From: an uncultured Clostridiaceae bacterium
GTDB lineage: Bacteria; Bacillota; Clostridia; Clostridiales; Clostridiaceae
Assembly (NCBI GenBank): GCA_963725425.1
Contig: CAVRYJ010000044.1
Span: 132,263-196,262, forward strand
Direction of reading: 5' to 3'
DNA length: 64,000 nt
In this document: piece by piece, positions 9,683-51,056 of the stretch
Layout of the letters: the number at the start of each line of letters is the position of its first letter
How positions within the stretch are numbered: the first letter of the stretch is position 1
The notes under the pieces: model-generated
The model's database searches: none
What the model was told of the DNA's origin: nothing
Seen by the model: only the letters and a program-made list of their open reading frames with translations
Program-made: the position numbers and the translations under genes

Positions 9683-12106
9683 ATGAAATATAAAGATTTA
9701 ATTAAAAAAATGACTTTAGAAGAAAAAGCATCTTTAATGTCAGGAAAAGATTTTTGGCAAACTCAGGATATAGAACGTCTTGGAGTCAATAGTATGTTTC
9801 TTGCCGATGGTCCCCATGGAATTAGAAAACAAGCGGTAGCCGCAGATCAGTTTGGACTTAATGTTGGTATTCCCGCAACTTGTTTTCCCACAGCCGCAAC
9901 TGTAGCTAACAGTTGGAATGAAGAACTGGGAGAAAAAATAGGAGAGTATCTTGGTGAAGAAGCTATTTCGCAAAAAGTTAATGTGCTGCTAGGACCTGGT
10001 GTTAATATGAAGAGAAATCCTTTATGTGGAACAAACTTTGAGTATTTCAGTGAAGATCCATATCTTGCCGGTAAAATGGTTGCTGGATATATTAGAGGAA
10101 TTCAGTCACATGGAATTTCAGCTTGTGTGAAACATTTTTGTGTAAATAATCAGGAAGAGAGACGTATGGCTATTGATACCATAGTGGATGAAAGAACTCT
10201 TAGAGAAATCTATCTCACTGCATTTGAGATTGCAGTTAAAGAAGGTAGGACTAAGGCCATAATGTCTTCATATAATATGCTTAATGGTACATATACTAAT
10301 GAAAATATGCATTTGATGAATACAATCCTGCGTGGTGAATGGAATTATAAAGGCTGCGTTATTACAGATTGGGGCGGAAGCAATGATCGTATTGCAGGAC
10401 TTATTGCTGGTAATGAGCTTGAAATGCCAACAACATCAGGTGAGACAGATGAAGAGATTATAAGCGCCATTAAAAGTGGAAAAATCAAAGAAGAAGTATT
10501 AGACCAATGTGTAGACAGATTACTTGAACTTATTTTTACAACAGAAGATGCATATAAGAAACCTCATACAGAGTTTGATGTGGAAAAGCATCATAGAGTA
10601 GCACAAAAAGTTGCAGAAGAGTCAATAGTGCTGCTTAAAAATGAAGAGAATATATTACCACTTAAATATGGTAAAAAAGTTGCAGTTATAGGCGAGTTTG
10701 CAGAAGAAGCACGATATCAGGGTGCGGGATCATCTATTGTAAACCCAACAATCTTGGATCATACATTATATTGTTTTGAGGAATCAGGAATTATCAGCAT
10801 TGGATATGAACCTGGTTTTGAACGGTATGGTAAAAAAAGTAAGAAAAAAGTAGATAAGGCATGTGCACTTGCAAAAGAAGCAGATGTCATTCTTTTATAT
10901 ATTGGTCTGGATGAAGTAAGCGAAGCTGAAGGACTTGATAGACAAAGTATGAGCATTCCAGAGAACCAAATAGATTTATTAAATGCTCTGCACAAAGTTA
11001 ATCCCAATATTATAGCCATTCTTTCTTGTGGCTCTGCAGTAGAAATGCCATGGATAAATAAGGTAAAAGCATTGTTGCATGGGTATTTAGGGGGACAGGC
11101 AGGAGCAAGGGCCATACTTAGGGTTTTGTCAGGTGATGTGAACCCTTCAGGAAAATTGGCAGAGACATACCCAATTCATTATGAGGATACACCTTCCTTT
11201 CACAATTTTCCTGGTAAAGAAGTTAGCGTAGAATATAGGGAAGGTATTTATATCGGCTATCGCTATTATGATACAGCAAATATAGATGTTCTTTTTCCAT
11301 TTGGATATGGCCTTAGTTATACAGCTTTTGAATATTCAGATATGAAAGTTAATAAGTATGAAGCAACATTTAAGTTAACAAATTCCGGAAAAGTTGCTGG
11401 AATGGAAATCGCACAGATGTACGTAGGCTGTAATTCCCATGATATTTTCAGACCCAAAAAGGAGTTAAAAGGATTTGTTAAGATATTTATAAATGCAGGT
11501 GATACAAAGACTGTAACAATATATTTTGATGACAAGACATTTCGGTATTTTAACGTTAAAACAAATAAATGGGAAATACAAGAAGCAGAATATACAATTA
11601 TGATTGCTGCATCAAGTGCAGACATAAGATTAGAAGATAATGTATTTATAAAAGGCACAGATGCACCACTGCCCTATGACAAGAACATACTTCCATCCTA
11701 TTATTCAGGTAAAGTAAACAACGTCAGCACAGAAGAATTCGAAAAATTAATTGGGTTTAATGTGCCTATCTCTAAATGGGATAGAACAAAACCACTTGGT
11801 TACAATGATACTATTGCACAGTGTCAGTATGCAAAGGGCGGATTTGCAAGATTTGTTTTTCATATGATTGTTTTTGCATATTGGTTTTTAAGAAAAATAG
11901 GAAAGAGAAGCGCTGCTAATATTATAATGATGTCTATATATCATATGCCATTTCGTGGAATCGCCAGAATGACAGGTGGTGCAGTGAATATGCCAATGCT
12001 TAATGGCATTTTGATGATAGTAAATGGCCATTTCTTTAAAGGCTTGAATCATTTGTTAAAGGAAAGACGTAAGATGATGAGAGAGAGAAAAGCGAAAAAA
12101 CAATAG
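9683..12106 (+). CDS. GH3 beta-glucosidase, close paralog of 6434-8881
   Basis: Collinear with the preceding GH3 over its whole length; same motifs (ITDWGG). Confidence 0.95.
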   Translation: MKYKDLIKKMTLEEKASLMSGKDFWQTQDIERLGVNSMFLADGPHGIRKQAVAADQFGLNVGIPATCFPTAATVANSWNEELGEKIGEYLGEEAISQKVNVLLGPGVNMKRNPLCGTNFEYFSEDPYLAGKMVAGYIRGIQSHGISACVKHFCVNNQEERRMAIDTIVDERTLREIYLTAFEIAVKEGRTKAIMSSYNMLNGTYTNENMHLMNTILRGEWNYKGCVITDWGGSNDRIAGLIAGNELEMPTTSGETDEEIISAIKSGKIKEEVLDQCVDRLLELIFTTEDAYKKPHTEFDVEKHHRVAQKVAEESIVLLKNEENILPLKYGKKVAVIGEFAEEARYQGAGSSIVNPTILDHTLYCFEESGIISIGYEPGFERYGKKSKKKVDKACALAKEADVILLYIGLDEVSEAEGLDRQSMSIPENQIDLLNALHKVNPNIIAILSCGSAVEMPWINKVKALLHGYLGGQAGARAILRVLSGDVNPSGKLAETYPIHYEDTPSFHNFPGKEVSVEYREGIYIGYRYYDTANIDVLFPFGYGLSYTAFEYSDMKVNKYEATFKLTNSGKVAGMEIAQMYVGCNSHDIFRPKKELKGFVKIFINAGDTKTVTIYFDDKTFRYFNVKTNKWEIQEAEYTIMIAASSADIRLEDNVFIKGTDAPLPYDKNILPSYYSGKVNNVSTEEFEKLIGFNVPISKWDRTKPLGYNDTIAQCQYAKGGFARFVFHMIVFAYWFLRKIGKRSAANIIMMSIYHMPFRGIARMTGGAVNMPMLNGILMIVNGHFFKGLNHLLKERRKMMRERKAKKQ

Positions 12107-12113
12107 AAGAATG

Positions 12114-12152
12114 AAACCCACCACATTGAAAAATTTTCAATGTGGTGGGTTT
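12114..12152. terminator. Bidirectional intrinsic terminator between convergent genes
   Basis: AAACCCACCACATTGAAAA / TTTTCAATGTGGTGGGTTT inverted repeat with a T-run. Confidence 0.9.
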
Positions 12153-13744: not shown

Positions 13745-14035
13745 ATGATTAATTAGTTAATTCATACTAGTATTTTATGTTGGTGTAATATACTAGTATT
13801 TAGTATTAGTACTAAGGGTCGGTAGTAAGGGTCAAATCTATAGTTAGGAAGGCATATGAAAGACAATGGACAATGGACAATGAGCAATTGAAAGCCGGCA
13901 AGGGGTAGTTGATGGTTAAGTTTTTTTATTTTCTCCATGTATTGAGAAAATAAAAAAACTTAATTTTAGATTTTTTGAATCCAAGCGTAAAAAAATCAAC
14001 CTTAACTGTCCATTGTTCATTGTCAATTGTCCACT
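13745..14035 (+). repeat. ~300-bp dispersed repeat, copy 2
   Basis: Collinear with 1980-2290. Confidence 0.85.
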
Positions 14036-14100: not shown

Positions 14101-14182
14101 ATAAACAGAATATTGTTCTGTTTATCTATTGACATTTCTCCATGCAGAACTATAATTATAAGCAGAACGATATTCTGTTTAT
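14101..14182 (+). promoter_or_regulatory. sigmaA promoter flanked by two candidate TetR operators
   Basis: TTGACA (14129) - 16 nt - TATAAT (14151); palindromes ATAAACAGAA-N5-TTCTGTTTAT (14101-14125) and AAGCAGAA-N5-TTCTGTTT (14160-14180). Confidence 0.8.
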
Positions 14183-17459: not shown

Positions 17460-17880
17460 ATGGATATGAATGCTGATATTAAAAAAGCAGAAGAAAAAAT
17501 AGAATATCTACTTTGTCATTAACAACAGAGAAGCAGTTGCCAGTGAAACCAGCTTTTCCTTTATAATCTATAATTAGTTAATTCATACTAGTATTTGAAG
17601 TCAGTGTTATATATTAGTACTTAGAATCAATACTAAGTACTAATACTAAGTATCAGTATTTAGTATTGGTTCTAATAGTTAATACGGCATCTGTAAGACA
17701 ATGGAGAATGGACAATTGAAAATTGACAATTGACAATGAACAACTGGCAATGGATATTTGATAAGTAAAGGTAGTTCTTCTCCCTACTAGTAAAATTACA
17801 AAACTTCCCTTTAGATTTTTTGAAGCTTTGCTACAAAAAATCAACCATAACTATCCATTTTCAATTCTCCACTGTCCACT
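17460..17880 (+). repeat. Deleted remnant of the rpn 3' region plus ~300-bp dispersed repeat, copy 3
   Basis: Pieces match ~1437-1490, ~1764-1788 and ~1950-2290 in order, with internal deletions. Confidence 0.85.
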
Positions 17881-35927: not shown

Positions 35928-36685
35928 TAAAAGTGCGAAACGTTACTCAATAAATTCTGATTAGAATTTATTGAGTGGAGATTAAAGACTCATTTCATTT
36001 AGAGGAATGAGTCTTTTCTTTAACTCCTTTATAGAATTGACAGGTGAAAGCCCTGTCTAGGACAACAGCTAGTATGTCCTATGTCTAATCCTCCTGCACA
36101 CCACATAAATCTGCTTACTTTATGGATGTGAAGCCAGGTGAAGTCGTAATAGGTGTAAGGCCTGTGCGGGGCTCCTTAAAAGGTTGCTATGATCAATATA
36201 ATATAATCCATGTTTATGCGGTATAAAAGTAGTTCATGCTGTTAAAATAACCATACCTTGGGCTTGGCACGAAACAGTGGGAACTAGATGTCCTACTGAA
36301 TTAAGAATAATTAAGCTGTTAAACTTAATTTGTTTATATCGTTAGTGGAGATCTAAGGCAGTCAAAAATAGGGATAATAAAGGGGAACGTTTGATGCTGT
36401 GCATAAGGAGGATTAGCAGATCCAATGAAAGATGTACGGGCTCAGCGGGTTCATAGTAGCAATGATACTCAGCCGAAAGCTAGAGTTTGAAAAGACTCTG
36501 AAATACTCATATGGTAACATAGGGGAAGGATAAAACTGAGTTAGCCAAGGAACCCAGTCGGTGATAGTAATATTGGATTAAACCAATTTTGTTAAGTCGA
36601 TGGAACGCCGTATGCCATGAAAGTGGCACGTACGGTGTGGACCGATCGAAATCCAATCATTTAAATTGAGTGGATAGTGAGGGAT
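35925..36685 (+). ncRNA. ORF-less group II intron (bacterial class B / IIB-like ribozyme) with predicted 5' splice site 8 nt upstream of GUGCG
   Basis: GTGCG at 35933; D3-like AGCGGGTTCATAGTAG...GGAAGGATAAAACTG; short ORF-less D4; canonical 34-nt D5 ACGCCGTATGCCAT-GAAA-GTGGCACGTACGGTGT (36605-36638); loop TACCTTGGGCT (36254-36264) complementary to the predicted junction AGCTCAA|GGAA. Confidence 0.88.
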
Positions 36686-37618
36686 GGAACAGTAAAAGCA
36701 GAACAAGTAGCACCAACAGGATTAGGAAGTGTAGCACCAACCGCAGCACTAACAGATGGTATCATAACAGGTACAACAGTTGCTATGCAATATAAATTAT
36801 CATCCGCTACAAATTATACTGCTGTAACAGGAACATCAATCACAGGTTTAGTAGCAGGAACTTATGATGTAAGATATGCAGCTAAAACAGGCTATAATGC
36901 TGGAACTGATGCAACTGTAACAGTTGGAGCTTATGTATCACCAATAACTGTAACTAGTTCATTAGTTAAAACAACTCATGGAAGCGCAGCATCTCTTGGA
37001 GCAGACCAAGTTACTATATTACAGTTTAACGGTGATACAAACGTAGCTGCAGATGGAAGCATCACAGTTACATTTGCAGATGGAACTCAAACTGTTGCTA
37101 AAACAGTAGCAGTTAGCGCAGGCGATACTAATTCAATTGTTGCAGGTAAAATCATTGCTGCATTTGCAACTGGTTTAACTGGAGTAACAGCTACTCAAGA
37201 AAACAATATAGCTGAATTTACTGAAAATTCACCAGCAGCTAACAATAATAATATTATTATAACATTGGCGCCTGGTTCAGTTACTGGTATAGATGATGAA
37301 GGAGGATCACTCATCATGATACGAGGATCAGCAGCATCAACAGGAGCAGCAGAAGTTAATACTTTAACTGTTACCGCTGCAACTGTAAATGTAAATGGAA
37401 ACATCACAGTTACATTTGCAGATGGAACTCAAACTGTTGCTAAAACGGTAGCAGTTAGTGCAGGCGATAATGCTTCAACTGTTGCAACTAAAATCAATGA
37501 TGCATTTGCAACTGGTTTAACTGGAGTAACAGCTACAGCTGTAGGTAACACTGTAGTATTTACTGCAAATACCCCAGCTATTGATAAAAATGTTACAGTA
37601 CTGATCAGTGCACTTTAA
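36686..37618 (+). CDS. Start-less surface-protein segment; predicted 3' exon (DUF4073-like and other beta domains)
   Basis: No signal peptide and no convincing RBS/start; QVAPTGLGSVAPT...DGIITGTTVAMQYK...ITGLVAGTYDVRYAA; in frame with the upstream gene after the predicted splice. Confidence 0.7.
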   Translation, partial: GTVKAEQVAPTGLGSVAPTAALTDGIITGTTVAMQYKLSSATNYTAVTGTSITGLVAGTYDVRYAAKTGYNAGTDATVTVGAYVSPITVTSSLVKTTHGSAASLGADQVTILQFNGDTNVAADGSITVTFADGTQTVAKTVAVSAGDTNSIVAGKIIAAFATGLTGVTATQENNIAEFTENSPAANNNNIIITLAPGSVTGIDDEGGSLIMIRGSAASTGAAEVNTLTVTAATVNVNGNITVTFADGTQTVAKTVAVSAGDNASTVATKINDAFATGLTGVTATAVGNTVVFTANTPAIDKNVTVLISAL

Positions 37619-37679
37619 TAGCAAATTCGCTTCGCTCGTAAATACCCAGAGTTTCTGAGAAAAATGTGAATTAACAAAT

Positions 37680-38418
37680 AGAATAAGAAGATAGAATCGT
37701 CTGACGTGACGGTTCTTTTCTTTATCTAAAAATAACCACTCTGCCATCCTATTGCAACATCAAGTTAGAAACTATCAATAACTATTACTAACTACATCAC
37801 AAATCATATTATGTATACTAATCTAATATTTTAAATAATATAAATCAATATCTATTTAGTATGATGATTTACATTGTTTAGAATACTAAATAATGTATAA
37901 AAGGAGTATATCTATATTCTTCTCATAATTGTGTTTTCATATACAGTATAGAGCCTTTAATAATTGTTTCGTCTTTAAAAGAACTAAATAAATAAAAACG
38001 TCATCATGTCTTTTGATATGGTGGCTTTTGTTTAAGTAGGTTATTATAACACATATTAAACTATAATTCGACTATTTGTTGATGGAAACATAGGAATATA
38101 ATGTTAATATTTCATAAACATTTAATGACATTAAATAAATATTAGAAATACATGGAAAGAATAATAGAATTATATGACAATAAAATTAGAACAATGTACC
38201 AATAAAAAGATTAATTCACTCACAAAGCCTAAAAAGCTCATTTCACTGCAAAACTTCAAAGAAATTTACTGCAAAAGAATTCTCATATTCATCAGTAAAT
38301 CCTCATTCTATTCATTTCAATAGTTTCTAATAATTCGACACTGCATATTCTTCACTGCATAATCTAAATAATGCAGTAAACCTGTATAAGTCTAAGATAG
38401 ATTAAAATCTGTCTTAGG
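37680..38418 (+). repeat. ~730-bp non-coding direct repeat, copy 1 (begins with a REP-like hairpin)
   Basis: Collinear, imperfect match to 50200-50913. Confidence 0.9.
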
Positions 38419-38454
38419 CTATTTTGGGTATCTGTAACTAAAAGATAATGAAAT

Positions 38455-39055: not shown

Positions 39056-39963
39056 ATGAGTGATATTAGTACTACAGAGATTGTGGCTGAAAAAATAGTA
39101 GTAGATTTTGAGCAAACATTATCAGAAGACGGAAAAGCTGCTAAGACATTGGAAAGCTATGTTGGAGACATTAGAGTATTTCTTGAATGGTTAGATTCTA
39201 AGGGAAACATCTTCACAGGTAATCTAAAAAGGTTTCATGTTACCACCTACAAGAACTATCTAGTTCAAGAAGGCTATGGGTAAATACAATCAATAAAAAG
39301 ATAAATAGCTTACACTCCTTCAATCAATTCCTAGTTGATAAGGAATATCTAAATGAGCAAGTAGTAGACCTAAGAAAAGATAAGGTGAAAGTAGCCGCAG
39401 GCAGTGAGGGAGAAGTGGAAGTGTTAACAGATGCTGAAACTGAAAAGCTGCTATTCTACATTCAATCACAAAAAGTAACTGCTAGAGATAGGCTAATAAT
39501 ACTAATGCTCTTGTATACTGGTGTAAGAGTTTCAGAACTTGTAAATGTAAAGCTAAAAGATATAGACCTTTTAGCCATGAATCTAACTATATCCTGTGGT
39601 AAAGGTGGAAAGCGAAGAGAAGTTCCACTAAAGGGTGAGGTCATAGATGCTATCAAAGAATACTTAGAAGATGAAAGAAAGAGAAATAAGTTTGCTGAAA
39701 GTGAATTCCTAATCCTAACTAGTAGAGCAGGAAACATGGACAGGGATGCTGTAAACAAGCTTCTAAACAAGATGGGTAAAACTCTGGAAATAAGACTCCA
39801 TCCACACAAGTTTAGACATACATTTTGTACAAGGTTGTTGAAAAGAGGAGCAGAACTAACCACTGTTGCTAAATTAGCAGGTCATTCATCAATTCAAACA
39901 ACTGCTAAATTCTACATTAACACATCACAAAAGGACAAGAGAGATGCAGTGGAAATGTTGTAG
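39056..39963 (+). CDS. Tyrosine recombinase/integrase (frameshift in a G-run at ~39280)
   Basis: N-terminal SAM-like part (KTLESYVGDIRVFLEWL); YTGVRVSEL, GKGGKRREVPL, HPHKFRHTF, LAGHSSIQTTAKFY catalytic residues. Confidence 0.9.
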
Positions 39964-40005
39964 TAGGTACATTGAAAGTATTCTATTCACTACTACTAAC
40001 CTAAA

Positions 40006-40056
40006 ATATCAGCACTACTAGCAATGTAATAATTAGGATATTCATAGTGCTGATAT
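40006..40056. other. Island palindromic site A
   Basis: ATATCAGCACTA-N27-TAGTGCTGATAT. Confidence 0.75.
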
Positions 40057-40264
40057 ATAAGTCTATAATATTAAAAATGAAACAATAGAATTTTCAAATA
40101 TATATCATACCTATAGAAGAACAATACATGATTGCTACTTCACTGTAACATGCATTATCTGTAATAAAGTATTAAAGGCATCTAATCTCAAAGAAAAATG
40201 AGGTTAGATGCTATTTTTATGTCTAAAAGAAAATAAATATTGTAGGAGAAAGGGAGTACACAGA

Positions 40265-40576
40265 ATGTTTGATAATAAAAGATACATGACCAAGGGAATA
40301 GATGAGGAAATACCGTTAGAAATCCAATTATATTTATGGAATTGCATAGATACATTAAAAGAGAAAGGACGTGAACTAGACTACTTGCAGGTATTTAAGC
40401 TAGAAAAGATAAAAATAACATTTGCTAATATGGAATATCAGATGATAGAGCATAGGCAGGAAGTACCACAATTCATGATGTCCTATAATATATTTCCTAC
40501 TGAAATGGTAGATGCAAATATATTTGTAATAGATGATGGTAGGTATTCTACCATGATGTTAAGTGCGGAATACTAA
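40265..40576 (+). CDS. DUF960-like protein
   Basis: MFDNKRYMTKGIDEEIPLEIQLYLW...DYLQVFKL...FVIDDGRYSTMMLSAEY. Confidence 0.7.
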   Translation: MFDNKRYMTKGIDEEIPLEIQLYLWNCIDTLKEKGRELDYLQVFKLEKIKITFANMEYQMIEHRQEVPQFMMSYNIFPTEMVDANIFVIDDGRYSTMMLSAEY

Positions 40577-40590
40577 AGGGGGTTGGTTCT

Positions 40591-40737
40591 ATGGGAGAGA
40601 TATTGGCATTAATAGCAAAGATAATATTAATCATAGCACGAGGAATGAGTGCTGTTGAAGCTACCATAAAAGTAGCAGAAGAAACAGGAATTAATTTTGA
40701 TACATTGTGGGACTTTCTACCTAACAAGTGGAAGTGA
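40591..40737 (+). CDS. Small hypothetical protein (48 aa)
   Basis: RBS AAAGGGGG; MGEILALIAKIILIIARGMSAVEATIKVAEETGINFDTLWDFLPNKWK. Confidence 0.55.
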   Translation: MGEILALIAKIILIIARGMSAVEATIKVAEETGINFDTLWDFLPNKWK

Positions 40738-40866
40738 TACCACATAGAGCAGCTTATTGTTTAGGCTGCTTTTTTTATCTTCTAAAAACTTAAAATACCT
40801 AATAATATTGATGATAAAAATCAGTGTGACAATAATGTCGATAGTGCCGATAAATACATCTATAAA

Positions 40867-42000
40867 TTGGTGAAAATACTGTATAATCTAAGTACGGAGG
40901 CGATTAAAGTGACAAATGGTGATATGAATTTTAATGAGTTTATAGCCTTATTAGGTTGGAGTAAGAATAAGTTTTATGATAATATTAAGAAAATTTGCAG
41001 TAAGGAAACATATGATATTGATATTGGTAAATTTAGAAAAGCTGGTGAAACTAAAGTAGAATATGATAGGAATGATAATGATTTTTGTTTTAAGAAAGAG
41101 TGGCAAGACATAGTGTATGTACTGTTTACTATGTTTGCAGATAATCCATTTTATAGAGCAAATAGTTCTGCTGATAGTATAACACTAGAGGAAATCATAA
41201 AATATAATAAAGACTGCTTGAAGTTGATTGCAGGAAAACTACCAGACTATCAAAGAAGGTTGATTCAATTGCATCCTACTTATGCTGCAACATTAATTGA
41301 AACTAAAGCAATGAAAAAGGTATCTCAGAAAGTACAATTTTTGCTATCATCATTAAGTAAAATGCCTGTAGAAGCAAGAACGGAAATATGGGTGAATTTT
41401 GATAAGCTGATAAACAACCAACTTATTCAGAGCTATTTGTCATCTATTAATACTAAAGAAAAGATTCAAGAAGATAAGGGGGATTTATTTAAAAACCAAT
41501 TATTTGGTGAATATGAACATATAAGTCTTGATAAATATGTAGCACAAGTTTTGAAAAAAGAAATGGATGCTGAATTTGTAAAGGAAAGAGATTCAATAAA
41601 TGAACTATATGTTCAATCTGATAAGGATTTAGATAAAAACTATATGGATATATGTGAAGATACTCCAGAAGAAATTGAAGCCATAGATAGAATGTATGAA
41701 GCTTCAGGGTTAGATGAACTACTACAGGGAACACGAGAAAAGATGATTGAAAATTTGATAAAAGAAAAGTTAACAGAAGCATCAAATATGATTGAAAATA
41801 GCACATCAGTGGATAGCACTATTGATGAGATTATTAATGACTTAGAAAAAGCAGATGGAGTAAATAACAAAAAACAAATAGAAAAGCTTAAAGAGGTCAA
41901 AGCAATTGTTAGCACAAATTCAAAAGAGATTGAAAAGTTTAGTAGTATAGCTGATAAGATTCTTTGCGAGCTAAATTACAATATAATAAATAGAAAATGA
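40867..42000 (+). CDS. Hypothetical acidic, helical protein
   Basis: 377-aa ORF; no family recognised. Confidence 0.65.
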   Translation: MVKILYNLSTEAIKVTNGDMNFNEFIALLGWSKNKFYDNIKKICSKETYDIDIGKFRKAGETKVEYDRNDNDFCFKKEWQDIVYVLFTMFADNPFYRANSSADSITLEEIIKYNKDCLKLIAGKLPDYQRRLIQLHPTYAATLIETKAMKKVSQKVQFLLSSLSKMPVEARTEIWVNFDKLINNQLIQSYLSSINTKEKIQEDKGDLFKNQLFGEYEHISLDKYVAQVLKKEMDAEFVKERDSINELYVQSDKDLDKNYMDICEDTPEEIEAIDRMYEASGLDELLQGTREKMIENLIKEKLTEASNMIENSTSVDSTIDEIINDLEKADGVNNKKQIEKLKEVKAIVSTNSKEIEKFSSIADKILCELNYNIINRK

Positions 42001-42198
42001 TGTTTGGTAAGGACTACGTATACTAGTAGTTCTTATTTTTTGCCATTGTAAAGAGCTATCCTATAAAAAAATTATATATAGTCCACCGAATGCTAAATTG
42101 TTTGCATGGAATTATAATATAGACATAGCAACGGTTACCAAGCTAAATTTGAAAAATGCTTATAACTGCAGTTATAAGTATAAGGAGAGTAACTTAAC

Positions 42199-44721
42199 AT
42201 GGTACAAACCAATATTAGTTCAATATTATTTTTAGAGAAATATATGGAAGTACTAAAAGAGAAGGGTACATTAGTTGAAATTAGAATTCTCAATACTAGC
42301 AAGGGTACTATAAGTGGGTACTACAATGACTATGAAAAACTTGCAAAGGATATTAAGCCATGCAGTGGCAAGTATAATATCTACTTCACTATAAACCCAG
42401 TTAAACAGGAACTTCTGGTAAGGGCAAAGAATCACCTAACAGCATATGCTAAAAATACAACTTCTGATGCAGATATTCTAAAAAGAGCTATCTTAATGAT
42501 AGACTTGGATGTTAAAAGACCTGCTGGTACATCATCATCAGATGAAGAACATGAAAAAGCTATAGAAAAGGCAGGAAAGGTTAAAGAATTCCTAACAGAA
42601 CAAGGTTGGTCTAATCCAGTAGTTGCAGATAGTGGCAATGGTGCTCACTTACTATACTCCATTGATATTCCTAATGATAGGGAAAGCACAGAACTTGTAA
42701 AAAATGTACTTAGAGCACTGGATGCAATGTTCACTGATGATGCGGTTGAGGTAGACAAGACAACTTACAATGCTTCTAGAATTTGCAAGGTATATGGTAC
42801 TGTAGCTTGCAAAGGTGATAACACAGAAGAAAGACCACATAGAATGTCGGGAATAATCAGTTATCCTAAAGAAATCCAAATAGTTACGAAAGAGCAACTA
42901 AAAAATATTGCATCTATGCTTCCTGTAGAAGAGAAAAAAAACACTGGAAATAAGAAGTCAAAATTAGACATTGAGAAATACATGGGGGAACATAATCTTA
43001 AAGTGTTTCAAGAAAAAAGTTTTGGCAATGGCAAAATATATGTATTAGAGCAATGCCCTTGGAGAGATGACCACACCGACAATGCTGCTTATATCATACA
43101 GTATGAAAATGGGGCTATAGCAGCGGGTTGCCATCATAACAGTTGCAGTGATGAAAATTGGCATACACTAAGAGATAGGTTAGAACCTGATTGGAAAAAG
43201 AAGTCTAAACCTTCTAAGGCTGATGCAGAAGATAAAGAAACACAGTCAGATGTTTTATTAAGGGTAGGAAAAGCTGCAATGCTGTTTTGTGATGATATTG
43301 AAGAAAAGTATGCAGCTGTTGATGTTAGGGGACATAAAGAAATTTATAAGATAAATAGCAAAAAATTCAAATTATGGCTAACAAAACAATACTATGACGA
43401 AACTGCTAAAGCTCCAGCAAGTGATGCTATGAACCAAGCATTAGGAGTATTTGAAATGAAAGCTATGTTTAGTGGTGAGATAAGGACTCTTTCAAGGAGA
43501 TGTGCAAAGTATGAAGGTAATTATTACTATGACCTTGCTGACATTAGTTGGGGTAATGTGGTAATAAGTAATGGTGGATGGAAGGTAATTCATGATGCTC
43601 CAATATTATTTTTAAGAAATAAGAATATGAAAGCACAGGTTGTACCAGTGGAATATAGTGACTTATCAATACTCAACAAGCATTACAGATACAAAAATAA
43701 GAATGATGAAATTCTACATATGGTAGACTTGGTAACAAAATTTATACCAGATATACCACATCCTATAGATGTAATACACGGAGAAAAAGGGTCGTCAAAG
43801 ACAACTTCCATGAAGAAAGACAGAAGTATAGTAGACCCTGCTGTAAGAGATGTTGTATCAATGCCCACAAGTAAGGAGGATTTAGCACTAATTCTTAGTA
43901 ACAACTATATGCCTTGTTTTGACAATCTATATAATATTACTCCTGAGAAAAGTGATATGCTCTGCATGGCTGCTACTGGTGGTGGCTTTAGCAAAAGAAC
44001 TTTATACACTGATGAAGATGAAACTATATTACATTTCAAAGACCCTATAAGCCTTAATGGTATAAATGTAGTAGCCACAAGAGCTGACCTTCTTGACCGT
44101 TCAATACTACTTGAGTTACAACGAATCCCAGAAAATGAACGTAGGGAAGAGAGCACTATTTTAGAAGAATTTGAGAAGGACAAGCCTAAAATACTTGGTG
44201 CAATATTTACTACTTTATCAAAGGCTATGATTATATATGCTGATGTAAAGCTAGACAGAATGGGTAGAATGGCTGATTTTACTAGATGGGGCTATGCCAT
44301 AGCAGAAGCAGCTGGGCTTGGAGGAGAAATATTCCTTAATGCCTATCTTAATAATCAAGGTAGAGCAAATGAGGAGGCAGTTGCATCAAGCCCTGTTGCA
44401 GCAGCAATAATGAAACTTATGAGTGATACAGTGAGATGGGAGGGTACATTTGTGAAACTACTTGTAGACCTAAACAGAATAGCTCAAATAGAGGGTATCG
44501 ACATCCACTCTAAACTATGGGCTAAAGAGCCTAATGTTCTTAGTAGAAGGATAAAGGAAATTAAGTCTAACTTAGAACAACTGGGAATTTGCTACACTGT
44601 TAGCCATCAAAGCATTGCAAAGAAAATAACCATAACTAATGAAAATGTGAATACAAATGTACCAATCATAAAACCTATAGAAAATGTTGATAATTTTTCT
44701 GAGGGGATGATTAATTTTTAG
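42199..44721 (+). CDS. Primase-helicase-like replication protein of an island or plasmid
   Basis: IDLDVKRP and DSGNGAHLLY (AEP/PrimPol-like), CPWRDDH...CHHNSC putative Zn site, HGEKGSSKTT P-loop, CFDNL, DLLDRSI. Confidence 0.75.
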   Translation: MVQTNISSILFLEKYMEVLKEKGTLVEIRILNTSKGTISGYYNDYEKLAKDIKPCSGKYNIYFTINPVKQELLVRAKNHLTAYAKNTTSDADILKRAILMIDLDVKRPAGTSSSDEEHEKAIEKAGKVKEFLTEQGWSNPVVADSGNGAHLLYSIDIPNDRESTELVKNVLRALDAMFTDDAVEVDKTTYNASRICKVYGTVACKGDNTEERPHRMSGIISYPKEIQIVTKEQLKNIASMLPVEEKKNTGNKKSKLDIEKYMGEHNLKVFQEKSFGNGKIYVLEQCPWRDDHTDNAAYIIQYENGAIAAGCHHNSCSDENWHTLRDRLEPDWKKKSKPSKADAEDKETQSDVLLRVGKAAMLFCDDIEEKYAAVDVRGHKEIYKINSKKFKLWLTKQYYDETAKAPASDAMNQALGVFEMKAMFSGEIRTLSRRCAKYEGNYYYDLADISWGNVVISNGGWKVIHDAPILFLRNKNMKAQVVPVEYSDLSILNKHYRYKNKNDEILHMVDLVTKFIPDIPHPIDVIHGEKGSSKTTSMKKDRSIVDPAVRDVVSMPTSKEDLALILSNNYMPCFDNLYNITPEKSDMLCMAATGGGFSKRTLYTDEDETILHFKDPISLNGINVVATRADLLDRSILLELQRIPENERREESTILEEFEKDKPKILGAIFTTLSKAMIIYADVKLDRMGRMADFTRWGYAIAEAAGLGGEIFLNAYLNNQGRANEEAVASSPVAAAIMKLMSDTVRWEGTFVKLLVDLNRIAQIEGIDIHSKLWAKEPNVLSRRIKEIKSNLEQLGICYTVSHQSIAKKITITNENVNTNVPIIKPIENVDNFSEGMINF

Positions 44722-44741
44722 ACACTAGATATACCCTAAAA

Positions 44742-44799
44742 TATCGACACTATAGACAATGTAAAATATAGGATTACAGTAATGTCTATAGTGCTGATA
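44742..44799. other. Island palindromic site C
   Basis: TATCGACACTATAGACA-N24-TGTCTATAGTGCTGATA. Confidence 0.75.
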
Positions 44800-44934
44800 A
44801 CTAAGGCTATATGGTGGGAGAGAATTATCCTAACTAATAAGAACCCAATGAAAATTTAATCAAAATAAATTAGTAATAAGTGATATTTGAAATATATATT
44901 ATCACTTTAGATAATAACATAGGAGGTCATTGAA

Positions 44935-45798
44935 ATGATATTAAAGGTAGGTAAGGAAAACTTTCTACAACATATGAATGCTATTGATAGGAGTCCCCAA
45001 ACAATAACTGGATATGGCAAAGATTTAAAGCAGTTTGAACAATTTCTATCAATAAAGTATAACGGTGAACCTTATATAGAAGATATTACCTCAAGTGATA
45101 TAGAAGATTTCCTCATGTATTTAAAAGAGGAACGAGACTATGCACCAGGGTCTAGGAGTAGAGATTTATATACTATACGTTCATTTTTCTCTTGGGCATA
45201 CAAGAAGGAAATAGTGATTAGGAATGTAGCTCTATCTGTTGAGAATATTAAGTTGCAGCAAAAGGAACGTATATATCTTAGAGATGAGGAGGTAGAAGAA
45301 TTGTTAGCAGCAATAGACCATCCACTAATTAATCTAACGGTAAGAACTCTATATAACACAGGTCTTAGAATATCAGAATGCTTATCATTAACCCTTAGCA
45401 CAGTTGACCTTCAGAACAAGGTTGTTCATGTCATAGCTGGCAAGGGTAATAAGGACAGATTAGTACCTATATCAGACAAACTGTACCCATACTTACAAAG
45501 ATATATTGAAAACGGTAGACAAGCTGTTGCTACAGACAATTTCTTTGCTACTGCTAAAACGGGCAAACTTTCAGCACAGTATGTGAATAGGGAACTTGCT
45601 GCTGCTACTAAAAAACTGGGATGGGACAAGAAAGTGACTTGTCATATACTAAGGCATAGCTTTGCATCAAGACTTGTAGAGCAAGACGTTAATCTAGTTC
45701 AAGTACAGAAGCTACTAGGTCATAGTAGTTTAAAGGTTACAAGTATATATACTCATTCTAATATAGACAAACTAAAATTAGCTGTTAACGCTATGTAA
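44935..45798 (+). CDS. XerC/D-like tyrosine recombinase
   Basis: NTGLRISE, GKGNKDRLVP, HILRHSFAS, LLGHSSLKVTSIY. Confidence 0.93.
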   Translation: MILKVGKENFLQHMNAIDRSPQTITGYGKDLKQFEQFLSIKYNGEPYIEDITSSDIEDFLMYLKEERDYAPGSRSRDLYTIRSFFSWAYKKEIVIRNVALSVENIKLQQKERIYLRDEEVEELLAAIDHPLINLTVRTLYNTGLRISECLSLTLSTVDLQNKVVHVIAGKGNKDRLVPISDKLYPYLQRYIENGRQAVATDNFFATAKTGKLSAQYVNRELAAATKKLGWDKKVTCHILRHSFASRLVEQDVNLVQVQKLLGHSSLKVTSIYTHSNIDKLKLAVNAM

Positions 45799-45806
45799 TG
45801 AACTGT

Positions 45807-45860
45807 AAATATCAGCACTGTGGCACTGTAAAATTCAGGATTACTATAGTGTTGATATTT
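45807..45860. other. Island palindromic site D
   Basis: AAATATCAGCACT-N28-AGTGTTGATATTT. Confidence 0.75.
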
Positions 45861-45871
45861 ATTGCAATATA

Positions 45872-46704
45872 ATGGAGGTGTTTGGCATGGAGATGCAGAA
45901 GAATGAAAATGAGCCAATATATGATGATAAGGTAAAAAATGTTATTAGACTTCTTACAGAAGGCATTAATAGAGAAGAAATAGCAAGTCAAATGGGGTAC
46001 TCTACCTTCAAGTCAATAGATATGTATTTTAGACGTAGGAACTTCCATTGGGATTCAGACAAACAGAACTATGAGCCAAGTCACAATAGTTTTGAAGATG
46101 TTAGCTTTGAAGACAGTATTGCTGCTACATCTAAAGTAGCACAGGTTATATCATTATTTTCTAAAGATGGAGCAGATTCTAAGGTTATAGCTAAAAGATT
46201 AGGGTTTTCAGAGCATAGAGAGATGGCTTCCTATATGGCAGGTAAGGGTTATCAGTGGTCAATTGAGAATATGAATTATACAAAGACATTAGGATTAGTT
46301 GAGGAATCAGTGGTTGTTTCTAAGACAGATTCACAAATTGATGCTAATTTAGAGGAAAATAAAGATAGTATTGTAGAAATGATACCAAATGTTAGGAGTG
46401 CTAATGCAGGACTAGTAGACTTGCAACAGTTTGTACCAATATTAATGATGCTACAGAAAAACAAGGATAGACTAGTTGACATGTTAATACCACAATCCGA
46501 TGAAAATAATATTCCAAGGTATGCGCTTCCAGGAGTATTTGTTACTAAATCAGTTCACATGATTAGTCCACTGGATATTATGGTTAGAGATTTCTCAAAG
46601 GAGAAAAATGTATCACAAAAGGATATTTTTGCTACTGCTCTGCTTGAGTTCTTTAAAGATATGGTTATGAAAGAGAAGTAGAACAAATGCTAGGTAGTAA
46701 ATGA
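45872..46704 (+). CDS. Hypothetical protein with duplicated HTH-like segments (probable indel near 46655)
   Basis: IASQMGYSTFKSIDMYFRR and IAKRLGFSEHREMASYM; alternative frame ends KRYGYEREVEQMLGSK. Confidence 0.6.
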
Positions 46705-46762
46705 TTAGTGAAATTATTTGTGATTTTGGATATAATATATGTATATGAGGATGTGAAATCTT

Positions 46763-47221
46763 ATGAATAGTAGAGAAAAATATGAATATTGGCTAGAAGC
46801 AGCACAGTATGACTTAGATTCCGCAAGAGTAATGATGGATGGTGGAAGGTATATGTATGTAGCCTTTATGAGTCAGCAGGCAGTAGAGAAAATCACAAAA
46901 GGACTCTATACCTTATATACAGAGAATGAACCACCAATGATTCATAATATTTGGAACATATTTAGACAGCTAAAAAAAGAAGCTAATCTTAGTGAGTATT
47001 TACCTGTTGATGAATTTGAAGAAAATTTACAAAAACATAAAAGATTTTTAGCAGAGTTATTGTCATACTATATATCTGGTAGATACCCTTCTTTCAAGGA
47101 GAAAATATCAAGTACTATTGATTCTGATAGGGCAAATAGAGTATTAAATAATACGGAGGCGGTGTTTTCATGGATAAAATCCCTGAATCAATACAAAAAT
47201 GATTCAAGATTATATCAGTGA
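46763..47221 (+). CDS. HEPN domain protein (toxin-antitoxin partner)
   Basis: WLEAAQYDLDSARVM, AFMSQQAVEKITKGL, YISGRYP. Confidence 0.85.
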   Translation: MNSREKYEYWLEAAQYDLDSARVMMDGGRYMYVAFMSQQAVEKITKGLYTLYTENEPPMIHNIWNIFRQLKKEANLSEYLPVDEFEENLQKHKRFLAELLSYYISGRYPSFKEKISSTIDSDRANRVLNNTEAVFSWIKSLNQYKNDSRLYQ

Positions 47222-47501
47222 TTTAGCTAAGAAAATTCCTATTCAAAAGGCTATATTGTTTGGTTCTTATGCAAAAGGTAATACTCATCAATATAGTGAT
47301 GTTGATATTGCTATATTTTCAGACTATTTTAAAGATATGCAGAGAGTTGATGGCATATATTTCTTACTATTATCTGCAATGGACTATGATATGGACATAG
47401 AACCACAGCCATTTACTATGGATGAATATGATGAGCCAGCAGGTTTAGTACAAGAGATTCTAAAGACCGGAATAGAACTAGAATTACCACAAGTAAGTTA
47501 G
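47170..47501 (+). CDS. Minimal nucleotidyltransferase (MNT), HEPN partner
   Basis: ILFGSYAKG...SDVDIAI; probable true start ATG 47170 after GGAGG, with a lost A at ~47195. Confidence 0.85.
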
Positions 47502-47526
47502 AGTAATCATCTTTTCATAGCCATAA

Positions 47527-47579
47527 TTATCGGCACTATTGACATGATAATTTTTACAGTGTTGACAGTGCTAATATTT
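47527..47579. other. Island palindromic site E (inverted relative to D)
   Basis: Reverse complement AAATATTAGCACTGTCAACACTGTAAAAATT...ATGTCAATAGTGCCGATAA matches the left part of D and the arm at 40835-40853. Confidence 0.7.
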
Positions 47580-47843
47580 TTGGTTATTCTAATGTATTTT
47601 TTTTACAATTGATTCTGCAATAGTAGCTTTAGTTACGTGGACTACTAGAACTACAGACATTTCAGTGTCATGAGCAACAAAAACATTCCATTACCTTTTT
47701 TCCAATCTATTTTGAACGTCTATCCTTTCCGTTACGTTAGTTCCATTATGTATTGAACAACAAATGGTAGAGCAACATCATGCGTAGAAGTATTGATTTC
47801 ACTAGGTTTGCTGGATATGAAGAAATAGGGATATTCTGGTTAG

Positions 47844-50156
47844 GGTTGTGCTATTAACGCTACTTCTGTAAAAGTAACATTTTCATCAGCAGTAACAACT
47901 GCTCCTACTGCAAGTGATTTTACAGTAGCAGAAAGCGGAAGCAATATTGCTGTAAGTAATGTAGCTGTTGCTAGTGATAATTTGAGTGCTACATTAACAT
48001 TAGCTACTCCATTAACAACAGGTTCTTTTACTGTTAATGGAACAAGTGCAGCTATTGATTTAAGTGCTCCAGTTGTTAAATCAGCAGTGTTTTCTGGAAT
48101 TGCAGCTGGAAGTACTATTACATTAACATATGACAAAACACTTAATTCAAGTATTGTTCCAGCAGCTGGTGATTTTAAAGTTGTTGACAATGGTACTGCA
48201 GTTTCATTATATGGATATGTTCAAGTTAATAGTAATACAGTAGTATTAACACTCTCTAGTGCTATTTCTAATGCTACTGACCCTATTACTGTAAGTTATA
48301 TTCCTGGAGCAAATGTACTACAAAGTAGTTTAGGTACAAATGCAGCTGAATTTGATTTGTTAAGTGCAACAGCAGAACCAGCTAGCGCTCTTGCTACAGT
48401 TAGTTCACCTAAGGCAGTAGCTGCCATTGGAGCAACTGCTACAATTAGTTGGACTAACCCAACAAGTGGTACGACTCCAGCATCATATAACCTAGAGGCT
48501 TCTGTTAATGGCGGAGCATATACAACAGTAGAATCAGGCATATTAAATTCTGCAACTACCGCTACTTATACTGGTTTAAGTGGACAGTCAGTAGCATTTA
48601 AAGTAGTTTCAGTTGGAACTGGAACACCCGCTCCAACTGTTGAATCAACAGCTACAACAGCTATTACATTAGATTCAGTTGCACCAGCTTTAACTTCAGC
48701 TGTTGTAAATGGCAATATTATTACTTTAACTTATAGCAAACCTGTACAGACAGCAACTACTGGTGCAAGTTTCATCAGTGAGTATGGATTAACTGGTACA
48801 GCTGCAACTATTAGTTCTGGTACTATTAGTGGAAATACAGTAACTCTTAAATTAAACCAAAGTGTTCTAAGCACAGATACCGTAAAAATACAGTATACAA
48901 ATGCAACAGCTGGTAACGCTGGCGAAGATATAAATGATGTAGTAGGAAATCAACTTGTGAATGATGCAACTGCAGGTGGTGTTACTAATGACACTATAGC
49001 AAATGCAGGAACTTTGTCTTTAGCAGGTTCAACTTCTACGTCAAGTGCTATTAGTGAAAAACTAACATTGGCTGACGCTACAGGAACTGGAGTTGATGTA
49101 AGTTCAGCAGCTATGGCTTCTATTCAAATGACAGCTCCAGATGGAACTGTTACTACGATAGCACCTACAGCTAACAACTATATTTTGTTTAATGCACAAA
49201 ATACAGCTGGTAATTACGTATTTAATATGACATCTCTTGCTGGGGTTAAATATCAAACGACACTTGCTTGGACAGCTCCAACGTCAGTAGTAGCAAATGC
49301 AACTGGAGTCGTAGATGCAACAAACGGTACAGAATTTGCTTTAGGAACACCAGCTCTTAGTTTAACAGCGAATACTTATGTTGTTGCACCTGATGGAACT
49401 GTATCAATAGCTACAGTCGATGCAAGCCATAATGTTGAATTGAATGGTACTTCTAATGGAACATATACAATTTATACAAGTACTGCAGGAAATGTTTGGT
49501 CTAAATCAACAGTTTCATATCCAAATAGCTTTACGCCTACTGTATCAAGTGCAACTGTAAATGGAACAACAATGGTTCTTAATTATAATGTTGCATTAAG
49601 TGGAACTCCAGCGGCTTCAGCATTCTCAGTTATGGATAACGGTACAAGTGATGCAGTAACCAATGTTGCAGTATCTGGAACTACTGTAACATTAACTTTA
49701 ACTAATGCGGTTCTTGCTAGTGACACAGGTACTGTTAGCTATACTGCACCGACTACTACTCCATTAGTAGGAGTTACAGGGAATGCTATTCAGGCTGCTT
49801 CATTCACAGGACAAAGTGTAACAGATAATACAACTGTTTCATCATTAGTAAGTGCAGCTGCTGCTACTGGAACAAGTAGTGTAGTGTTAACTTATTCTAG
49901 TGCTTTATCTGCAACTTCTGCAACTACACCTCCAGCAGCAACTAGTTATACTGTTACTGTTAATGGAGCTAATGATGCTGTAACAGGAGTAATTGTTAAT
50001 GCTGCTAATAAAACTGTAACATTAGCTTTATCTGCTAATGTTGCTGCAGGTCAGACAGTCGTTGTTAATTATAATAAGCCAACTACAAACTCTTTGACTG
50101 ATGCTATTGGTAATAACGTGGCAGGGTTCTCAAATCAGATTGTTGGAGTTCAATAG
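47844..50156 (+). CDS. Start-less surface-protein segment with SwmB-like repeats and an Fn3-like domain
   Basis: Open frame from 47844 (AINATSVKVTF...) without signal peptide or RBS; ITLTYDKTL...FKVVDNG...VVLTLSSAI repeats. Confidence 0.7.
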   Translation, partial: GCAINATSVKVTFSSAVTTAPTASDFTVAESGSNIAVSNVAVASDNLSATLTLATPLTTGSFTVNGTSAAIDLSAPVVKSAVFSGIAAGSTITLTYDKTLNSSIVPAAGDFKVVDNGTAVSLYGYVQVNSNTVVLTLSSAISNATDPITVSYIPGANVLQSSLGTNAAEFDLLSATAEPASALATVSSPKAVAAIGATATISWTNPTSGTTPASYNLEASVNGGAYTTVESGILNSATTATYTGLSGQSVAFKVVSVGTGTPAPTVESTATTAITLDSVAPALTSAVVNGNIITLTYSKPVQTATTGASFISEYGLTGTAATISSGTISGNTVTLKLNQSVLSTDTVKIQYTNATAGNAGEDINDVVGNQLVNDATAGGVTNDTIANAGTLSLAGSTSTSSAISEKLTLADATGTGVDVSSAAMASIQMTAPDGTVTTIAPTANNYILFNAQNTAGNYVFNMTSLAGVKYQTTLAWTAPTSVVANATGVVDATNGTEFALGTPALSLTANTYVVAPDGTVSIATVDASHNVELNGTSNGTYTIYTSTAGNVWSKSTVSYPNSFTPTVSSATVNGTTMVLNYNVALSGTPAASAFSVMDNGTSDAVTNVAVSGTTVTLTLTNAVLASDTGTVSYTAPTTTPLVGVTGNAIQAASFTGQSVTDNTTVSSLVSAAAATGTSSVVLTYSSALSATSATTPPAATSYTVTVNGANDAVTGVIVNAANKTVTLALSANVAAGQTVVVNYNKPTTNSLTDAIGNNVAGFSNQIVGVQ

Positions 50157-50199
50157 AAAACTCGCTTCACACACAATGAACTTCAATTGGCATGAACAA

Positions 50200-50913
50200 T
50201 AAATAAGAAGAGAGAATCGTCAGACGTGACGGTTCTTTTTCTTTATCTAAAAATAACCATCCTGTCACTATATTGAACATCAAGTTAGAGCCTATCACTA
50301 ACTACATCACAAATCATGTTGTGTATACTAATCTAATATTTTAAATAATATAAATCAATATCTATTTAATATGATGATTTACATTATTTAGAATACTAAA
50401 TTAATCATAAAGAGAATATATTCTATATTCTTTCCATAATTGTATTTTCATATACATCATAGAGCCTTTAATAATATTCTTCTATCAAAGAACTAAATAA
50501 ACAATAGAGTCATTTTGATATGGTGGCTTTTATTTAACTAGGTTCATTATAACACACATTAAACTATAATTCGACTATTTGTTGATGGTAACGTAGGAAT
50601 AAACTGTTAATATTTCATAAACATTTAATGATATTAAATATGTATTAGAAATACATGGAAATTAATATAGAATTGTATGACAATGGAAGAACAATGTACC
50701 AACAAAATAATTGATTCACTCACAAAGCCTAAAAAACTCATTTACCGAAAACTTCAAAGAAATTCACTGTAAAATAATTCTCATATTCATTAGTAAATCC
50801 TCATTCTATTCATTTCAATAGTTTCTAACAATTCTACAGTACGATTTTTCACTGCATAATCTAAATAATGCAGTGAACTTGTATAAGCCTAAGATGGGTT
50901 AAAATCTGTCTTA
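50200..50913 (+). repeat. ~730-bp non-coding direct repeat, copy 2
   Basis: Collinear with 37680-38418. Confidence 0.9.
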
Positions 50914-51056
50914 AACTATCGATAGTGCCAGTAGTGTTGATAAATAAGGCTATAAAAAGTGTAGAATAAAATGTAGTATTCTGATAAGATAAGGGTAAGG
51001 AATAGCGAATATAATAATAAATAAATGGCAAAGGTATATATGGGGGAAGTGAATAA

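Follow-up and report, generated by a model that had tools for sequence, protein, structure and literature searches.

Palindromic sites of tandem 9-bp units at the gene junctions of a clostridial integrative island: candidate iterons of a PrimPol-SF3 helicase

What is the role of the palindromes that follow one gene after another in an integrase-bearing island of an uncultured Clostridiaceae bacterium? The window analyzed here is a stretch of 64,000 nucleotides of its genome (GenBank assembly GCA_963725425.1, contig CAVRYJ010000044.1, positions 132,263 to 196,262 of the forward strand). The island is composed, in this order, of a 119-aa open reading frame (ORF), int1, a DUF960 gene, a 48-aa ORF, a 377-aa ORF (p377), the gene of an 840-aa protein, int2, and the genes of a 264-aa putative helix-turn-helix (HTH) protein, a HEPN protein and an MNT nucleotidyltransferase. 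A first-pass annotation had described the palindromes as protein-binding sites rather than terminators and had further proposed that the two tyrosine recombinases, encoded by int1 and int2, recombine DNA at them. Our analysis compares the island with about 18 related loci, several of them from metagenomes; it upholds the first of these claims and argues against the second. The sites are probably sequence-specific double-stranded DNA binding elements. We tentatively read them as iteron-type sites of the 840-aa protein, a predicted PrimPol-SF3 helicase; the copy directly behind its gene would be the replication origin, and the other copies would be auxiliary or regulatory.

Position of the sites in the island

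The palindromic arms reported initially were recovered by pattern search, as were the partial copies H1 and H2, and the full sites do lie just past gene stops. S1 (39991..40070, plus strand; nhmmer score 53.7 bits; arms at 40007 and 40045) is located 43 nt past the stop of the int1 pseudogene (39963 to 40006). S2 (44725..44821, plus strand; 82.0 bits), the candidate replication origin, follows the stop of the PrimPol-helicase gene by 21 nt (44721 to 44742) and lies upstream of int2. S3 (45796..45878, plus strand; 52.5 bits) follows the int2 stop by 9 nt (45798 to 45807), so that int2 is indeed bracketed by two sites, the direct copies S2 and S3. S3 directly adjoins the ribosome-binding site of the gene that follows and is therefore internal to a transcription unit. 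S4 (47508..47590) is inverted, scores 58.9 bits on the minus strand and is found 26 nt past the MNT stop (47501 to 47527). Orthologous copies exist for S1 in L014o (the locus of Clostridium muellerianum), L021 and L022, for S3 in L014o (12023-12117) and in the Brevibacillus locus L028, and for S4 in L014o (13753-13839).

Three further copies are incomplete in the window. H1 (40793..40873, plus strand; 47.0 bits) stands upstream of the p377 and PrimPol-helicase genes with an intact right arm (TAATGTCGATAGTGCCGATA) and a decayed left arm; its counterpart in C. muellerianum (L014o 6556-6653) is a full palindrome, the left arm having been lost in the window. H2 (50919..50960, plus strand; 22.3 bits) is a right-arm-only copy (TAGTGCCAG TAGTGTTGA TA plus AATAAGGCTATAAAA), and its start coincides with the exact end (50919) of the second of two 730-bp direct repeats. 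H3 (47615..47660, minus strand), just past S4, is a degenerate half-site, weak in the window, which aligns to a clearer additional half-site past S4 in C. muellerianum (L014o 13879-13923).

With at most one mismatch, the arm pattern TAGTGCTGATA is matched at 40007(-)/40045(+), 40842(+), 44789(+), 45810(-)/45847(+), 47528(-) and 50932(+), and at only one further place within the 64-kb window (56397); two mismatches have to be allowed to retrieve the second arms of S2 (44742-) and S4 (47566+). A profile made from ten copies finds S1, H1, S2, S3, S4 (on the minus strand) and H2, and nothing more in the window. The 12-mer ATAGTG[CT][CT]GATA occurs exactly 19 times in the 5.77-Mb assembly, and six of these occurrences fall within 7.5 kb of the island, where about 0.025 would be expected. 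This concentration indicates that the sites are island-specific and no dispersed genomic repeat; elsewhere in the genome the motif does not rise above background.

Structure of the sites

According to the alignment, the whole unit spans about 85 nt, which is larger than first described, with arms of 25-30 nt. Each arm consists of two tandem 9-bp units with the consensus TAGTGCCGA and the core TGNCGNTA; a full site thus has two plus two inverted units about an A-rich asymmetric centre. The left arm is laid out as TATCGGCAC TATCGGCAC TGT and the right arm as TAATGTCGR TAGTGCCGA TA. The centre itself is conserved (TGTAAAA..AGGATKAC; TGTAAAAAT.AGGATGAC), and so are both the left flank CCTAAAATA and the right flank TAAGGCTATA. 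Across about 39 sites we counted 105 units, and adjacent units are 9 bp apart in 34 out of 41 cases.

A hairpin that is maintained for its pairing should show compensation between its arms. Complementarity between arms amounts to 13.0 of 18 positions within a site vs 12.7 of 18 between sites (permutation p = 0.11), and departures from the consensus affect one arm only in 108 cases and are mirrored in both arms in 22. Copies with direct repeats only (S2 of L015o, L025 and L027, each with three tandem units) and copies reduced to the right arm (H1 of the window, L025, L027 and L016o) are conserved at orthologous positions. The primary sequence of the sites is kept across genera, neither strand is consistently the better folded one in RNA folding, and the search of the sites against Rfam returned no relevant match at E<=1. 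Since the arms do not compensate for each other and one-armed and direct-repeat-only copies persist, the sites appear to be double-stranded protein-binding sites and not hairpins selected for pairing. The original preference for protein binding over termination therefore gains support from sequence conservation, the 9-bp tandem units, the missing arm covariation and the half-sites, and also from canonical terminators elsewhere in the island.

The accompanying statement that U-tracts are absent is valid for the sense strand of S1 to S3 but not for S4, whose hairpin, read on the sense strand in the fold analysis, is followed by AUAUUUUUGG; many relatives have a U-tract as well. In many of these relatives, including the copies in serine-recombinase islands, an A-run lies left of the site and a T-run right of it. 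Such flanks, together with the sense-strand U-run of S4, imply that several copies could also terminate transcription. The island uses ordinary terminators besides the sites: the terminator scan detected one canonical intrinsic terminator between S1 and DUF960 (40177..40212, plus strand; a stem plus ATTTTTAT) and a second one with a U-tract at 40746-40772.

Sites in related islands

The site family is present at the same junctions in every related island examined, i.e. in C. muellerianum, in metagenomic relatives and in Brevibacillus. The C. muellerianum locus L014, whose helicase is 76% identical, has the same gene order and orthologous copies of S1, H1, S2, S3 and the inverted S4. The recombinases of the other islands differ. 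Xer-like int1 and int2 are both encoded in L021; L022 combines a Xer-like int1 with a downstream phage-type integrase in int2's stead; and L023 and L026 possess a large serine recombinase and no Xer-like gene. All four nevertheless have sites past the first operon, past DUF960 and the small ORF, and past the helicase gene. In L015, L025 and L027, with a serine recombinase and a helicase of 60% identity, there is a full site between convergent genes, the three direct tandem units past the helicase gene, and a site just 5' of the recombinase gene; L025 and L027, the two loci in which the region was fetched, also have a one-armed copy past DUF960. In the more distant loci L016-L020, which encode a serine recombinase and a helicase of about 50% identity, the site directly past the helicase gene is a shorter version, GACATTATCG-N12-CGATAATGTCGATA. 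A one-armed copy in L016o and a short palindrome in L018o are each placed upstream of the gene pair that contains the helicase gene.

The Brevibacillus locus L028 resembles the window in its architecture (int1 ... helicase, int2, hth, HEPN-MNT), and palindromes occupy its H1, S2, S3 and S4 positions. Its units are variants (TACTGACGCTA, and TGTCGGCA at S2), and the core TGNCGNTA is common to all of its sites. Taken together, all 16 PrimPol loci examined have a site immediately behind the helicase gene, about 20-140 nt from its stop, and a second site lies upstream of the gene or genes preceding the helicase gene; this H1 position is occupied in L021, L022, L023, L026, L025, L027, L016o and L028.

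One genome departs from this association with PrimPol. The island of G227 (contig C30) shares the backbone of L025, with RadC and DUF960 about 81% and the serine recombinase 95% identical, and its PrimPol module is replaced by a Cch helicase (DUF927 plus HTH_56). Four S-type sites are retained elsewhere in this island. A comparison of PrimPol with the G227 Cch protein by hhalign aligned the Walker A segment only and revealed no common DNA-binding domain. Behind the Cch gene (L029/L032; G227o 10795-11060) we observed a terminator, followed by AT-rich sequence in which CGGGAAA/TTTCCCG repeats occur; these repeats are a candidate for a Cch-specific origin.

For the distribution in the wider family, the double unit RTGYCRRTAGTGYCRATA was searched in 301 family genomes. 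The pattern matched five PrimPol-positive genomes, G227 and two further genomes: the match in G208 falls inside an apparent EF-G-type coding region, as judged from its sequence, and that in G061 is a weak model match only. The reversed pattern, used as a control, gave five matches, so the matches in G208 and G061 are consistent with chance. Beyond chance-rate matches, the site is confined to island-bearing genomes among these 301.

The PrimPol-SF3 helicase and a candidate origin

Which protein might bind the units? The gene at 42199..44721 (plus strand) encodes the predicted replication protein of the island, a fusion of an archaeo-eukaryotic primase (AEP)-type PrimPol with a superfamily 3 (SF3)/D5-type helicase. 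The 840-aa protein yielded zero matches in Pfam, NCBIfam, PHROG and the PDB sequences. It contains AEP-like DxD and SGNGAH motifs and a Walker A motif, and its AlphaFold model (pLDDT 86.8) matches the PrimPol of African swine fever virus (ASFV), monkeypox virus (MPXV) E5, vaccinia D5 and the SaPI5 primase-helicase (7OLA). These fold matches show that the label "primase-helicase" given to it initially is correct at fold level. The family is large: out of 8000 candidates scored, 844 proteins match at E<=1e-10, and homologs are widespread in Firmicutes, where they are annotated as "hypothetical protein". The search for plasmid relatives produced remote helicase-domain matches only, none of them in Firmicutes. 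A C-terminal winged-helix-like region (LSRRLKEVKSNL) is conserved from Clostridium to Brevibacillus, as is the unit core TGNCGNTA.

The model that we tentatively prefer is the following. The sites would belong to the backbone of a replicating integrative island that resembles staphylococcal cassette chromosome (SCC) elements and Staphylococcus aureus pathogenicity islands (SaPIs), and the PrimPol-SF3 helicase would bind the 9-bp units. Two plus two inverted units about an A/T-rich centre form a layout that would suit the head-to-head loading of two helicase rings. The origin would be S2, which follows the helicase gene directly on its 3' side, in analogy to the SaPI ori and the cch2-ccrC region of SCCmec, and H1, upstream of the p377-helicase gene pair, would be a second binding locus comparable to ori and crr of P4. 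An auxiliary part, in regulating or insulating adjacent operons, would fall to S1, S3, S4 and the half-sites; several of these could perhaps also terminate transcription in one or both directions. The build, conservation and positions of the sites, their indifference to the type of recombinase, the missing hairpin covariation and the fold of the helicase are shown by the analysis; the identity of the protein at the sites and the start of replication by its binding are what we infer here.

Several parallels speak for this model. In SCCmec, Cch2 binds iterons between the helicase and recombinase genes via the C-terminal domain of the helicase, and the SaPI ori is cited as lying just 3' of rep (PMC7581432). 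As in the SaPI ori and the putative SCCmec origin of that study, the sites considered here are short repeats that immediately follow a self-loading helicase gene on its 3' side (in all 16 PrimPol loci) and precede a recombinase gene, with two sets of repeats around an A/T-rich stretch (here two plus two units around TGTAAAAAT.AGGAT). DUF960 and large serine recombinases are further features in common with SCC elements. There are also differences from SaPI and SCCmec: the helicase is a fused PrimPol-SF3 protein for which no family model exists, the units have a length of 9 bp and a two-plus-two inverted arrangement, and the putative binding site recurs four to six times across the island and not once. 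A comparable case is the satellite phage P4, in which type I iterons at ori and crr are bound by the alpha primase-helicase. The island shares with P4 the fused primase-SF3 helicase and the repeats, direct and inverted, at two loci that flank its gene, but P4 has two such loci vs five or six here, and the repeat sequences and the proteins are unrelated at sequence level.

What is more challenging for the helicase as binding protein is the number and placement of the sites. An origin of this type would be expected once per element and tied to its helicase; four to six copies per island are unusual for an origin. The sites persist in G227 despite the replacement of PrimPol by Cch, downstream of which lie separate repeats of another sequence (CGGGAAA). 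Both S3 and the H1 of C. muellerianum are situated inside transcription units, directly before ribosome-binding sites, and the A- and T-run flanks of many relatives resemble bidirectional terminators. Moreover, DNA binding by the conserved C-terminal region of the helicase is putative.

Alternative interpretations

The main rival explanation holds that the sites are operators or insulators of a global regulator other than the helicase, either an island protein or a conserved host factor. In this scheme, which we consider possible though rather doubtful, one protein on the 9-bp units at every junction would silence or coordinate the operons of the island, and several copies would double as terminators. 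It would account for the presence of sites at essentially every operon boundary irrespective of gene content, for their retention in G227, where the PrimPol module is gone, for the site that always stands just upstream of the recombinase gene whatever the recombinase family, for a motif nearly unchanged between islands whose proteins are only 45-50% identical, and for the A- and T-run flanks. Analogous global operator sets are known from plasmids, namely the KorB/KorA operators of IncP plasmids and the omega heptads of inc18 plasmids. The KorB OB sites and omega heptads likewise consist of one short motif, palindromic or tandem, at many promoters or junctions of a mobile element, served by one regulator; they differ in that no such regulator was identified here and in that some of our sites lie inside operons. 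Indeed, a DNA-binding protein common to all islands was looked for and not found. DUF960 (40265..40576, plus strand; Pfam PF06124, 8e-24) is, by tblastn, the sole island protein present in every site-bearing island whose fetched sequence covered its position, but as a binder it was rejected: its fold matches only the uncharacterized structure 2R41 and no DNA-binding fold. The HTH genes differ between lineages, and S3 and the H1 of L014o leave no room for a promoter.

Known host factors fit the units poorly. The Spo0A 0A box reads TGNCGAA, and the CIRCE element of HrcA reads TTAGCACTC-N9-GAGTGCTAA. The units of the island read TGYCGAT with 9-bp phasing, so that the seventh base in the aligned sites is T and not A; a CIRCE-like half (AGCACT) occurs only in the window's own variants, with a spacing of about N27 and not N9. 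The resemblance to the Spo0A box, CIRCE, the DnaA box and dif is partial only, and these candidates were dismissed. A literature search on an inverted repeat at the ccrAB promoter found nothing usable.

A second, unlikely, alternative is that Firmicutes harbour a large and so far undescribed family of SCC-like replicating islands with the palindrome of 9-bp units as their universal junction element, recognized by some factor and used for the swapping of modules independently of the islands' integrases. Module swaps are indeed seen: Cch for PrimPol, a serine recombinase for a Xer-like integrase, and different cargo between two sites, as in L025 vs G227; p377, too, is replaced, immediately past H1. 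The first-pass annotation had suggested that homologous islands be compared for module gain or loss at the sites. The ends of homology blocks between islands are enriched there, with 11 out of 66 falling within 40 nt of a site in both loci vs about 3-9% expected, a descriptive statistic from island comparisons that are not mutually independent. The cassette-like modularity is thus real as a pattern; yet conserved junction sequences yield the same breakpoint pattern without any site-specific recombination.

We regard it as quite unlikely that the sites act purely through hairpin structure in RNA or single-stranded DNA (as terminators, mRNA stabilizers or processing sites) and resemble one another only through duplication and gene conversion. 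The predicted hairpins are stable (-16 to -38 kcal/mol; z-scores of -2.5 to -5.5), they are found at the 3' ends of operons, T-runs follow the stem in relatives, and a U-run follows on the sense strand of the inverted S4. Against this, the arms lack compensatory changes, the folding is not consistently better on either strand, copies with one arm or with direct repeats only are kept at orthologous positions, a 9-bp periodicity has no role in a hairpin, and ordinary terminators adjoin S1 and H1. Neither of the marks of a structured RNA family, an Rfam match or helix covariation, was found. A strand-specific RNA hairpin with G-U asymmetry was likewise discarded, there being no strand that folds consistently better.

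Very improbable, finally, is the model proposed in the first place, according to which the sites are recombination sites of Int1 and Int2 and the modules between them are excised, inverted or exchanged. The arrangement is suggestive, as S2 and S3 stand in direct orientation on either side of int2, and S3 and S4 enclose the cargo as an inverted pair; directional recombination sites have an asymmetric centre, and so does this site; the block ends are enriched near the sites as given above; and L022 and L023, one with and one without Int1, diverge precisely at the S1 edge. Like Xer/dif and attC sites, moreover, these sites are imperfect palindromes with an asymmetric centre, located past gene stops and beside Xer-like recombinase genes. 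But the same sites occupy the same junctions in serine-recombinase islands without a Xer-like gene (L015, L023, L025-L027, G227), and sites that occur in islands without the two integrases are unlikely to be the recombination sites of those integrases. Furthermore, int1 is a pseudogene in the window and is split in L022, and the segment from S3 to S4 with hth, HEPN and MNT is oriented alike in each of the three lineages in which it occurs, no inverted variant having been seen. The geometry differs as well: in place of the two inverted arms of about 11 bp around a crossover spacer of 6-8 bp that form a Xer core site (11-6/8-11), the arms are 24-30 bp apart and built of tandem 9-bp units. Co-occurrence with a cognate recombinase fails too, as sites exist where there is no tyrosine recombinase at all. 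An integron attC or cassette array was rejected because the site alignments contain no RYYYAAC/GTTRRRY (R/L) boxes and Int2 scores 143 bits vs an integron-integrase cut-off of 265.

Two remaining candidates can be dismissed briefly: a genome-wide repetitive extragenic palindrome (REP) or miniature inverted-repeat element (MITE), as the motif is at background outside the island and the hairpins flanking the neighbouring REP-associated tyrosine transposase (RAYT) gene, of the CCCCNGGGGG type, are unrelated; and a promoter formed by the TATAAT-like box past the right arm, as its -35 spacing is inconsistent and S3 and the H1 of L014o abut ribosome-binding sites.

Further features of the island and its flanks

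The int1 gene (39056..39963, plus strand) is a frameshifted pseudogene of a Xer-like tyrosine recombinase, its Pfam and NCBIfam matches being split over two ORFs; alignment to the intact C. muellerianum gene (L014o) locates a 1-nt deletion near 39279. In the metagenomic locus L022 the gene is also broken into two ORFs. By comparison, int2 (44935..45798, plus strand) is intact and encodes a Xer-like tyrosine recombinase of 287 aa (Phage_integrase, 3.8e-40), which is XerA/XerD-like but under the family cut-offs. A TTTGAAATATATATTAT element is found 20-35 nt upstream of the recombinase start in the window (44884-44900), in G227o (about 11438-11455) and upstream of int2 in L014o. It is conserved before genes of both recombinase types, Xer-like integrases and large serine recombinases, which suggests a regulatory region that belongs to the backbone and under which recombinase genes were swapped.

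The cargo between S3 and S4 (45887..47501, plus strand) comprises the 264-aa putative HTH protein, HEPN (46763-47221; Pfam HEPN, 5e-24) and the MNT nucleotidyltransferase (47199-47501; Polbeta/NTP_transf_2). The 48-aa ORF after DUF960 (40591-40737) has a hydrophobic N-terminus; ORFs of 45-59 aa, matched by size and place, hold its position in L021, L022, L023 and L028.

The island is flanked by 730-bp direct repeats with 90% identity (37670-38422 and 50192-50919). The last 80 nt or so of these repeats (38340-38422 and 50840-50919) contain two hairpins, CACTGCATAAT..ATGCAGTG and AGCCTAAGAT..TCTTAGGCT. Because L021, whose island lies in an unrelated pilin locus, has this sequence again at the island's left flank (3961-4050), the sequence appears to be a left-terminal part of the island, and the second repeat together with H2 may be the remnant of a second, tandemly inserted island.

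Downstream of the island, the 21-mer GGTTAGGGTTGTGCTATTAAC (47838-47858) stands directly before surface-protein ORFs that lack a start. Brevibacillus L028 (about 17680-17700) has the identical 21-mer and C. muellerianum (L014o, about 14160-14181) a near-identical one; a related sequence, GGTTAAGGTTG, precedes a pilin gene at the right end of L021. The 21-mer could be the attachment core of the island's right end, or a splice or processing signal; compared with the 3' end of the nearby group II intron (36603-36690), it has no resemblance. Group II introns or their genes, together with arrays of surface-protein (Big_5, S-layer-like) or pilin genes, repeatedly adjoin such islands, in Clostridia as well as in Bacilli (L022 1663-3954; L028 1-777; window 35933-36690).

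Significance

SCC elements and SaPIs are the main replicating integrative islands studied so far, and the SCC origin is still putative. Our analysis points to a broad, unannotated relative of these elements in clostridia and bacilli, whose cis-acting sites are easily recognized and found again at each module junction. With the helicase as their binding protein, the sites would provide a defined origin and a clear example of an initiator that binds an island at multiple sites; with another factor in that role, they would be the marks of a global control or module-exchange system. Should they serve as universal junctions, cassettes would be exchanged independently of the islands' own integrases. 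Either way, the sites are a practical marker for finding such islands and mapping their modules, and they provide concrete DNA probes for binding work.

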